From Octopus vulgaris (taxonomy: Eukaryota): DNA of 64,000 bases. The position numbers and the translations under genes are program-made. Within the stretch, counting starts at the first letter, position 1; each line of letters begins with the position of its first letter. This document shows, one piece after another, positions 57,598-60,618 of the stretch. The stretch is taken from the NCBI GenBank assembly GCA_951406725.2, contig OX597822.1:33728001-33792000 (forward strand). The letters are read 5' to 3'. The notes under the pieces were generated by a model. It had not been told where the DNA came from. It ran no database searches and was given only the letters and a program-made list of their open reading frames with translations.

Positions 57598-57856
57598 TAA
57601 TAACAATGATAATAATAATAATAATAATAATGATGATGATGATGATGATGATGATAATAATAATAATAATAATAATAATAATAATAATAATAATAATAAT
57701 AATGATGATGATGATGATGATGATGATGATGATGATGATGATAATAATAATAATAATAATAATAATAATAATAATAATAATAATAATAATAATAATAATA
57801 ATGATATTAATAATAATAATAATAATAATAATAATAATAATAATAATAATAATAAT
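57598..57856. repeat. Compound (TAA)n/(TGA)n microsatellite
   Basis: Direct reading. Confidence 0.95.
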
Positions 57857-58620
57857 GGCAGTAGCCCAACATGTCGTGTATGTCAACAACAAAATGAAAC
57901 CATTGAACATGTTGTCTCCAAGTGCAGTCTTCTAGCGCCTACAGAGTATCTCAACAGGCATGATAGAGCTGCACAATATATTCACTGGGTAATTTGCAAA
58001 AACCTGGATTTGCCCCATGAAAAAAACTGGTGGGAACACAAACACCTCCAGTGCTTGAAAATGACCACATCTCACTCTTCTGGAACTTCACCATTCAAAC
58101 TGACAGAAAGATAGATACAAATAGGCCAGACATATTGAAATACTTCAGACAAAGAACATGCCTCCTCATTGATATGACTGTCCCAATCGATATAAACGTA
58201 TCTGTCAAGACCTACCAAAAACTGAGCAAATATAAAGATCTTGAAATAGAAATCAGCAAAATGTGGAACCTAGAGACTAAAACAATACCTGTTGTCATAG
58301 GTGCCCTGGGAATGATAGCGAAAGGGGCTGATTGCTACCTAACTCAGATACCAGGAAACCTCAAAATGGCAGAAATTCAAAAGATAGTGCTCATGGGAAC
58401 TGCTCATATCCTACGCAAAATACTTTCTATGTAATCTCAAGGTTTAAAACAAAGAATTTTTTTTATTAGACATTCACTAGAACAACACAAAAAAAAAAAC
58501 AACAAATATATGGCACGCTAGGCATAACAACAACGTGAACTTCCAACCTGTTGTCTCTTGAGGTCTCTGGGTGAGACTTGGAGCCAACTTGTACAAATAT
58601 AAAGCAAAAGTCAAACATAG
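57857..58620 (+). mobile_element. 5'-truncated R4/Dong-like LINE, family 1
   Basis: GSSPTCRVCQQQNETIEHVVSKC, RPD, IPVVIGALG...AHILRKILSM* (stop 58434), 3' UTR then (TAA)n. Confidence 0.88.
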
Positions 58621-58696
58621 AATAATAATAATAATTATAATAATAATAATAATAATAATAATAATAATAATAATAATAATAATAATAATAATAATA

Positions 58697-59884
58697 GTAG
58701 TCCAGTACAGTTTTAACATCATTAACTGGAACCTTACGGAACTCCAACGCTTGGACAGGAAGACAAGAAAGTTACTGACATCCAGGAGCATGCACCACCC
58801 TAAGGCAGATGTAGACCGCTTGTACCTACCTAGAAGCAGCGGGGGGAGAGGAATGATGCAATTGGAGCTGTGCTATAAGACCTCTACTGTAGGAATGAAC
58901 AGGTACCTATCTAGTACAAAAGACTGGATGATGCGACTTGTGTGTGAACACGAATGCAGCAAAAAGCTGCATTCTATTGTCAAGGAAGCTTATAAGTTCG
59001 AAAGGGAACTAGGCATTAACCTTGAATCAGGTGAAGAGCCAGAAACCACTGCTACCAAGCAAGCAAAGCGAATCAGGCAGACTGCAAAAAAGAATGGGCA
59101 GAATCAAATTGAGAGGCGGTGGAGCCAGAAGCCCCTGCATGGACAATACATTCTCCGAAGCCAAAATGCTGATGTAGACCAAGCAACAACCCATCAGTGG
59201 CTGAAGAGTTCTGGATTGAAAGCAGAGACTGAAGGCTTCATAATGGCAGCACAAGATCAAAGCTTGTTTACCAGAAATTACCAGGCTAACGTTCTCCGAA
59301 ACGGTACTGACCCTAAATGCAGATTCTGTGACACATTTGACGAAACAATAGACCATCTCGTTTCGGGATGTCCTGTGCTGACACCAAACGAATACAAAAA
59401 TCGCCACGATAGGGTAGGACAGTATATACATTGGAAGATATGTAAACACTACAAATCCGACACTCCTGCTAACTGGTATGAACACCATCCTCAGCCAGTT
59501 GTTGAAGGTAAAGATGTCACCATCCTCTGGGATTTTCCAGTCAACACTGACAGAACGATCAAGGCTAATCGACCAGACATAATTGTTAAAGACAGGGAAG
59601 AAAATACCTGCAGACTAATAGAAGTAAGCGTCCCCACTGATAAAAATGTATCTGTCAAGGAATTTGACAAACTTAGTAAATATAAGGACCTGGAAATCGA
59701 AATACAGAGGATGTGGAATCTTAAAACAAAAACTGTTCCTGTTATTGTAGGTGCCCTAGGTATGATAAAAAAGGGATGTCAGAAACACCTAGACAATATC
59801 CCTGGAAAACCATGTCTCAAGGAAATCCAAAAGATTGTGCTAACAAGTACTGCCCACATCCTTAGAAAAACCCTATCAATGTAA
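58697..59884 (+). CDS. C-terminal ~395 aa of an R4-clade retrotransposon ORF (RT thumb, CCHC knuckle, PD-(D/E)xK endonuclease); no native start
   Basis: RLYLPRSSGGRG, KPLHGQY, CRFCDTFDETIDHLVSGC, RHD, RPDIIV...LIEVSVP...KLSKY; the ORF's first 42 codons are UTR/(TAA)n read-through. Confidence 0.85.
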   Translation, partial: VVQYSFNIINWNLTELQRLDRKTRKLLTSRSMHHPKADVDRLYLPRSSGGRGMMQLELCYKTSTVGMNRYLSSTKDWMMRLVCEHECSKKLHSIVKEAYKFERELGINLESGEEPETTATKQAKRIRQTAKKNGQNQIERRWSQKPLHGQYILRSQNADVDQATTHQWLKSSGLKAETEGFIMAAQDQSLFTRNYQANVLRNGTDPKCRFCDTFDETIDHLVSGCPVLTPNEYKNRHDRVGQYIHWKICKHYKSDTPANWYEHHPQPVVEGKDVTILWDFPVNTDRTIKANRPDIIVKDREENTCRLIEVSVPTDKNVSVKEFDKLSKYKDLEIEIQRMWNLKTKTVPVIVGALGMIKKGCQKHLDNIPGKPCLKEIQKIVLTSTAHILRKTLSM

Positions 59885-60039
59885 ATGTTTGTGTTTGTAT
59901 TACATGGAGATATTTCTCTACTTCCCCTCCCCAAGCTTTCAGCTATATTTCAACAACTCTTAACCTTCACTTGCCCTAGGGCGCTGGGTGTGCCCCGGCA
60001 GGTGATTGCATCAAACATGCAGATTAAAAGTAAATGACA
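58697..60039 (+). mobile_element. 5'-truncated R4/Dong-like LINE, family 2, (TAA)n on both sides
   Basis: Uninterrupted ORF, structured 3' UTR, (TAA)n at 58621-58696 and 60040-60072. Confidence 0.9.
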
Positions 60040-60618
60040 ATAATAATAATAATAATAATAATAATAATAATAGTTGCTATAAGAGGCACAAGACCTGAAA
60101 TTTTGGGTGAGGTGACTAGGTAATCACATCGATCCCTGTGTTCAAATGGTGCCTATTTTAATGTGTCAGTATACATGCATACACAGTATTTTTAAATGAC
60201 AGGCATTCATGGATGCTACGTCAATGTTCTTCTATAGTCGATGCCGTTAAAAACTGGCAACAGTTGGTCTACACAGCTGTCGTGAAAAACTGAAGCTAAC
60301 AGCACAGCCACAAATAAAAATAGGTTATCGACAGAATCATTCCAGCGTGACATCATTCCTGTAATTCTTTTCGTTGCGACAATGCAAAATCTGCATGACA
60401 CAATCTGCAAAGGATATCAACCTCCATGTGTTTTGTCGATGATGCTAAAGCTATATTCAACTAATATCGCTTTCAAATTTTGGCTCAGGGCCAGCAAATT
60501 TCGAGGAGGTTATTAGTCGATTACATCGACTCCCAGTGTTCAAATGGTATTTATTTTACCGACCACAAAAGGATGAAATATCTAAGTAATATTTTCGTGC
60601 CAAAAATTTCGCGAGAAG

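Follow-up and report, generated by a model that had tools for sequence, protein, structure and literature searches.

We analysed a window of 64,000 nucleotides from the genome of Octopus vulgaris (assembly GCA_951406725.2, contig OX597822.1, positions 33,728,001 to 33,792,000 of the forward strand; coordinates below count from its first letter). It holds two places where truncated copies of Dong-like long interspersed nuclear elements (LINEs) lie head-to-tail within a TAA microsatellite. The first, pile-up A, contains a copy of family 1 (F1a) and a copy of family 2 (F2). On the plus strand a compound TAA/TGA tract is followed by F1a, (AAT)25, F2 and (AAT)11, all sense-aligned:

57597-57856, plus strand: compound (TAA)/(TGA) microsatellite, the upstream part of the target array of pile-up A (86.7 units by Tandem Repeats Finder).
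57857-58620, plus strand: F1a, a family 1 copy, 5'-truncated just before the CCHC knuckle and frameshifted, with a 186-nt 3' untranslated region (UTR) (tblastn, 54-60% to family 2 in two frames; 95-97% to its sister copy F1b, described below).
58621-58696, plus strand: (AAT)25, left by F1a as tail or target remnant and flanking F2 on its 5' side.
58697-59884, plus strand: F2 open reading frame (ORF) remnant of 395 amino acids, with the end of the reverse transcriptase (RT) thumb, a linker, a CCHC zinc knuckle (59318-59371) and a restriction-like endonuclease (RLE; PD at 59573-59578, E at 59621-59623), assigned from motifs, AlphaFold, Foldseek and RT-bearing relatives.
59885-60038, plus strand: F2 3' UTR, 154 nt, with a two-stem hairpin at 59971-60002 (fold z = -3.0).
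60039-60072, plus strand: (AAT)11, tail or target remnant; family 2 ends in TAA in other sequencing runs too.

The core of the compound tract reads (TAA)7(TGA)8(TAA)16(TGA)13(TAA)20-TGA-TAT-(TAA)16, and a search upstream of the tract found no Dong-like coding match. The reading frame of F1a shifts between 58039 and 58048. In runs X3 and X16, loose ends behind position 60035 of family 2 read (AAT)n. No rRNA match was found in 57000-60500, and over the same interval Rfam gave no real match, only a single chance one (E 0.37). Between families 1 and 2, nucleotide identity is 68% over 422 nt and 77 of 128 amino acids agree; aligning their 3' UTRs gave nothing better than shuffled sequences did (144/300). 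This anatomy bears out the preliminary description of the locus, made from the sequence alone, which had seen two divergent families in the same orientation inside one TAA microsatellite.

F2 has 395 stop-free codons (58697-59881) and a stop at 59882-59884. Its translation carries C208-x2-C211-x8-H220-x4-C225, R236-H-D, R-P293-D294, E309, K321, K325 and K328-Y329, and the CCHC, RH(D/N), RPD, second acid and K..KY positions are conserved in 50-54 of 54 aligned sequences. The second catalytic acid is Glu in the F2 copy (E309, 59621-59623), whereas it is Asp in 53 of the 54; Glu is also found at 59621-59623 in a zero-difference contig of run X2, and much of family 2 has Asp. AlphaFold modelled the 395-residue piece with a pLDDT of 91, and all seven significant Foldseek matches were R2 retrotransposon proteins (E 1.9e-11 to 2e-7, 15-17% identity). 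The relatives of F2 that include an RT are at least 693 residues long, many about 1200, with 41-74% identity. PF00078 is present in all 120 relatives listed, which points to a single long ORF in which the RT precedes the endonuclease; the copies in the window, being truncated, begin only beyond the RT core. With a CCHC knuckle followed by PD-(D/E)xK and an R2-like fold, the elements are RLE-type (R2-group) retrotransposons without long terminal repeats. The earlier proposals that family 2 keeps an open frame of about 395 residues with these two motifs, and that the elements are RLE-type and Dong-like, are thus upheld by the codon count, the motifs and the R2 fold matches.

The families appear to fit the R4/Dong clade. 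The N-terminal zinc-finger pattern occurred in none of 75 fetched relatives longer than 1150 residues, and residues 60-145 of one long relative resemble a Myb domain (Myb_Rap1, score 0.86), a lead only, Pfam giving no Myb match; both features are read from relatives, not from a full-length Octopus copy. The lack of N-terminal zinc fingers together with the Myb resemblance fits the published R4/Dong description (PMC7998251). In a tree of the C-terminal region (129 columns, 42 rows), families 1 and 2 stand on separate branches, each closer to outside proteins than to the other. Their neighbours are cnidarian, crustacean, fish, echinoderm and insect proteins, including a Pediculus RT and an Exaiptasia protein, and both of these species belong to the published R4/Dong alignment (PMC7998251, legend of Fig. 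6). Because the tree contains no named R4, Dong or Rex6, and none of these references was among the matches listed, clade membership rests on architecture and target.

The second pile-up (pile-up B), which the preliminary description had not picked out, spans 17948-19544 on the minus strand and joins families 1 and 3. It lies inside the remains of another element:

16938-20937, minus strand: decayed Penelope-like element (RT ... GIY-YIG) enclosing pile-up B in its Asn-rich linker (co-linear match to P0292).
19486-19544, minus strand: outer 5' (TAA)10, then a (GGA)n run.
18377-19485, minus strand: F1b, a longer family 1 copy, 5'-truncated and frameshifted; 61 nt are deleted from it, and its 5' junction has a short duplication.
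18295-18376, minus strand: middle (TAA)26-27.
18029-18294, minus strand: family 3 fragment, the last approximately 55 residues of the endonuclease plus a 100-nt 3' UTR.
17948-18028, minus strand: 3' (TAA)26-27.

Family 3 shares 29-30 of 54 residues with families 1 and 2, has an unalignable 3' UTR and was left out of the tree above as too short. Residues 291-479 of P0292 map to 20307-19768 and residues 478-555 to 17709-17479, the consecutive flanks of the pile-up. The Penelope-like relatives P0291 and P0294 gave weak Pfam GIY-YIG matches, below the cut-off, and the three Penelope-like pieces of the window gave no Pfam match, the co-linearity being established through the relatives. A single Penelope-like ORF thus continues from one side of pile-up B to the other, and the TAA at the outer 5' end therefore does not derive from the tail of a further Dong copy. 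Probably it is an Asn-codon run in the Penelope linker, which would have served as the target. At the 5' junction of F1b (19440-19513, minus strand), a (GGA)n run and duplicated first bases of the element suggest slippage or re-priming during integration.

The junctions in the window support the idea that TAA is the target of the Dong-like elements and not only their tail. All four Dong-like copies have their 5' junction after sense-strand TAA, three directly and F1b by way of the approximately 50-nt GGA run and duplication, against a background in which sense-strand (TAA)>=3 covers 1.0-1.2% of each strand. The repeat is present on both flanks of all four, and each of the nine perfect (TAA)>=5 runs in the 64 kb belongs to one of the two pile-ups. 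The transition into the tail has the same phase (AAT) in all three families. Upstream of the point in the sister copy that corresponds to the F1a junction, the bases match the repeat at 4 of 6 positions. The window is also rich in AT, GT and GATA-type repeats, and simple repeats make up 9.4% of it.

Related elements were found on contigs from other hosts, namely eukaryote-like contigs within prokaryote metagenome-assembled genomes (MAGs), from which 30 loci were fetched for 91 matches. Several of the MAGs G001-G005 (loci L005-L017) have eukaryote-like contigs rich in LINEs and microsatellites, likely as host contamination. In G004, (TAA)n precedes all five truncated copies whose junction is visible, a sixth starting at a contig edge, and two copies (L037 and L012) each follow the 3' end of another family; these examples are on short contigs. 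In G001, tandem copies of three families that are 68-70% alike occupy (TAG)n, and TAG precedes 4 of the 5 distinct copies. This triple occupies L016 4794-8406 (G001:C3) on a 778-kb contig; it is R4-like and is followed by a TAG-derived minisatellite. In the nearly full copies L008 and L018, (TAA)n immediately precedes the element, and at its other end L018 runs into (AAT)98. The distant elements of G003, with no TAA at their match starts, were left out of the junction counts. Together with pile-up B, the mixed-family pile-ups in G001 (TAG) and G004 (TAA) support the earlier suggestion that arrays are shared by several divergent families.

The two copies of pile-up A also appear to differ in age. 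F1a has diverged by 3-5% from F1b, whereas F2 differs from contigs of run X2 at seven positions over about 1060 nt (about 0.7%). All seven lie among 497 bases of the 5' part, with none over 59164-59760, and five of them change a residue, as expected of a dead copy drifting neutrally, although they could also be differences between species. Family 2 itself occurs in at least 20 listed runs from 9 studies and four organisms, with 4446-7008 matched contigs per large run at identities from above 99% to below 90%. The preliminary description took the open frame of F2 as a sign of recent activity. In a neutral simulation this frame stayed open in 23-60% of cases at 1% divergence and in 0-10% at 5%; as it often survives neutrally at low divergence, the open frame shows youth rather than activity. 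The claim therefore stands as to age but not as to activity: the copy is a young dead insert, 5'-truncated, with most of its X2 differences changing an amino acid, and it was probably inserted after F1a. In O. vulgaris, 51 Dong-R4 families covering 92.7 Mb have been reported, recent activity being ascribed to five of them with 1129 insertions (PMC13282606), and in O. bimaculoides one full-length Dong consensus was described without sign of recent activity (PMC9115989).

Our reading, to which we give a probability of roughly 0.8, is that pile-up A is a (TAA)n microsatellite in which two 5'-truncated copies of different Dong-like (R4-type) LINE families came to lie head-to-tail through successive, independent events of target-primed reverse transcription aimed at TAA. 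By analogy with R2, the full-length protein of about 1200 residues would bind the 3' UTR of its own RNA, likely at a two-stem hairpin shared between families, its N-terminal Myb-like domain may recognize the repeat, and the endonuclease would nick the (TTA)n strand. Reverse transcription would then be primed on RNA ending in UAA repeats and would frequently stop early, short AA matches then serving to join the cDNA to the (TAA)n upstream. Each insertion would leave the repeat on both sides, with slippage likely lengthening the array. Because the repeat remains on both sides, later TAA-aimed families of any kind could land beside an earlier copy.

The same order could in principle have arisen in one event, if the RT, having finished the RNA of one family, switched to the UAA-tailed 3' end of a second family's RNA, or if its template was a read-through transcript. 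End-to-end template jumps are a property of R2 RT, such a chimera would also yield copies in the same orientation with TAA between them, and the duplicated, GGA-led 5' junction of F1b resembles the product of slippage or re-priming. We nevertheless consider this unlikely. The frameshifted F1a, 3-5% from its sister, and F2, about 0.7% from the X2 contigs, suggest different ages, and the outermost 5' TAA of both pile-ups would still require a TAA target.

Slightly less probable again is that TAA is only a tail, with copies inserting loosely into AT-rich or simple-repeat DNA and accumulating there passively. Several observations lean this way or otherwise weigh against the reading that we prefer. 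A distant family in G002 is looser: of its 12 visible 5' ends, only 3 have TAA>=3 in the adjacent 30 nt. L002, L003 and L004, among the loci closest to family 2 (48-73% amino-acid identity), have no TAA at the start of the protein match, a point that need not be the true junction. L039, a member of the TAG group, has no repeat at its 5' junction, and a fifth RLE fragment of the window (2324-1945) adjoins a (CATA)n array without TAA. Among the best 24 of 1813 loose ends on family 2, none of those on the 'before' side carries TAA; these 24 are the best-supported subfamily differences rather than single junctions, on short-read contigs of which none spans 57598-60072. As to pile-up A itself, a search for an empty site found only SINE-like (short interspersed nuclear element) sequence, within the window, matching its flanks, target duplications are unreadable within repeat arrays, and the tree bears on the clade with the limit given above. 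On the other side, all four Dong-like copies follow sense TAA despite the many other repeat types around them, as do the five of five in G004. The earlier claim that TAA is the target, with repeat left on both sides of each insertion, is accordingly supported in the window and in G004, while the family in G002 is looser.

An assembly artefact, in which unrelated repeat copies were joined across (TAA)n, is the least probable of the alternatives: no read or contig spans pile-up A and the G004 examples are on short contigs, but the Penelope-like flanks of pile-up B remain co-linear, and the G001 triple is part of a 778-kb contig.

The 3' UTRs revealed a candidate for a feature that the families have in common, a predicted hairpin composed of an outer 5-bp stem, a 3x1 internal loop, an inner stem of 4-6 bp and a loop of 5-6 nt, ending about 41-55 nt before the tail. 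It was placed as follows:

58554-58585, plus strand: predicted two-stem 3' UTR hairpin of family 1, the inner stem ending 42 nt before the tail.
59971-60002, plus strand, and 18063-18095, minus strand: hairpins elsewhere in the window.
L001:937-968; L037:38-69, minus strand; L032:1442-1473, minus strand: hairpins in loci outside the window.

In families 1 and 2 the inner hairpin (6 bp, 5-nt loop) ends 42-43 nt before the tail. The same inner hairpin stands 42 nt before the tail in L001, 54 nt in the G002 family and approximately 52 nt in L037, a distance taken from L012 as the L037 contig ends early. In an ungapped alignment of these five families the inner stem pairs in 30 of 30 cells, a count that is partly circular, the five having been picked for the hairpin out of 15 UTR stretches scanned. 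RNAalifold added the outer stem, which had played no part in that choice: 22 of its 25 cells are paired, four of its five pairs are changed on both sides, 0 of 500 shuffles were as good, and 30-40% of cells paired when the stem was slid. In family 3, which is outside the alignment, 9 of 11 pairs fit at 41 nt from the tail (6/2000 shuffles). Further 3' UTRs were matched weakly (E 0.4-1.7) by a covariance model of the five families, namely those of L029, of the fifth RLE fragment in the window and of two elements in the TAG group; up to E 5 the model found none in family 3, L018, L010 (where the UTR is cut short) or the other two TAG-group elements. The hairpin of the fifth RLE fragment found no support in a fixed-geometry test, in which 211 of 2000 shuffles did equally well, yet among window sequences outside the training set this fragment gave the model its best match (E 0.53). 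With five sequences and shuffles that ignore relatedness, the hairpin is a lead rather than proof.

In R2, the 3' UTR is the site at which the protein binds its template (PMC13580325). We found no report of a shared R4/Dong 3' UTR structure or of template recognition in the R4 clade in the literature searched, which covered few subscription journals. We tentatively suggest, at somewhat less than even odds, that the covarying hairpin is an undescribed template-recognition element of R4/Dong for target-primed reverse transcription, in TAA- and TAG-aimed lineages alike. Together with a shared, self-renewing target, it might let ancient families co-exist in, and manufacture, most of the long TAA microsatellites of their hosts, possibly mobilizing each other's RNA.

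Targeting of TAA by Dong is established, having been described from silkworm, mosquito and snail (PMC3812793) and from most insects, molluscs and cnidarians (PMC7998251). The named TAA-specific members of the R4 clade, Dong of Bombyx mori, DongAg, DongBg and the ostracod Dong1/2, resemble the octopus families in having an RT and a C-terminal CCHC and endonuclease, with TAA on both flanks (PMC3812793, PMC7998251). By description, the likeness may extend to the N-terminus, which in full-length relatives shows no zinc-finger pattern and has a putative Myb-like domain. What differs here is that divergent families, three in all, share single arrays. An HDV-like (hepatitis delta virus-like) ribozyme has been reported at the 5' end of R4/Dong (PMC3774820), and all window copies are 5'-truncated. 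The published Octopus Dong-R4 LINEs are likewise abundant, in many families and partly young, and the searched parts of that paper make no mention of TAA or of tandem arrangement (PMC13282606). R2 proteins (R2Bm, R2Tg; PDB 8gh6, 9nl3, 9dou) have the same C-terminal fold, with a TM score of 0.64-0.72 over the query, but differ in their N-terminal zinc fingers and their 28S rDNA target and share only 15-17% identity with F2. Utopia inserts in tandem into U2 genes (PMC4640811); in both Utopia and the G001 TAG-array elements, reuse of one target leads to head-to-tail stacks, as here, although the targets differ, and the tandems reported for Utopia-1_NVit comprise a single family in contrast to the mixed families of the octopus. 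No report of mixed-family Dong pile-ups was found in the same literature search, and earlier supplements or Repbase entries may describe tandem copies.

Other repeats were observed in passing. A SINE-like repeat of approximately 170-185 nt, probably an octopus SINE, is abundant in the window and often tandem (56726-57162, 33011-33466, 43452-43799, 61500-61830 and others). An element of approximately 420-430 nt resembling a miniature inverted-repeat transposable element, with terminal inverted repeats of approximately 29 nt, is present in two copies (60619-61048 and 37292-37712), the first with internal TTAGGG-like repeats. The decayed fifth RLE-type 3' fragment, at 1809-2324 on the minus strand, has a long branch and lies between (CATA)n upstream and (ATGT)n downstream. 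On the G002 contigs C46 and C83, loci L019, L040, L044 and L046 are chains of one Dong-like family with short TAA spacers and interleaved pieces of approximately 420 nt; these pieces match only the start of the L006 reference copy and are possibly a SINE-like partner or a separate short element. The gene model P0079 of the beetle Acanthoscelides obtectus contains two endonuclease-bearing fragments in succession, the second with an RT as well, and may represent a tandem pair that was annotated as one gene. A scan of viral contigs with P0103 found nothing.

The preliminary description had further proposed an active family 2 element as a tool for site-specific integration. TAA repeats are dispersed across the genome. 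Because the target is such a microsatellite rather than one locus, and at least one relative is loose in its choice, this proposal is weak; as a gene-insertion tool the element would be sequence-specific, not locus-specific. The hairpin is the more useful lead, being a small and directly testable candidate for template recognition in the R4 clade. The pile-up itself is a clear example of a known behaviour, that of a microsatellite-aimed LINE rebuilding its own target, through which long TAA arrays become graveyards common to several families. That every perfect (TAA)>=5 run in the window is tied to a Dong-like copy matters for the use of TAA markers and for the annotation of such genomes.

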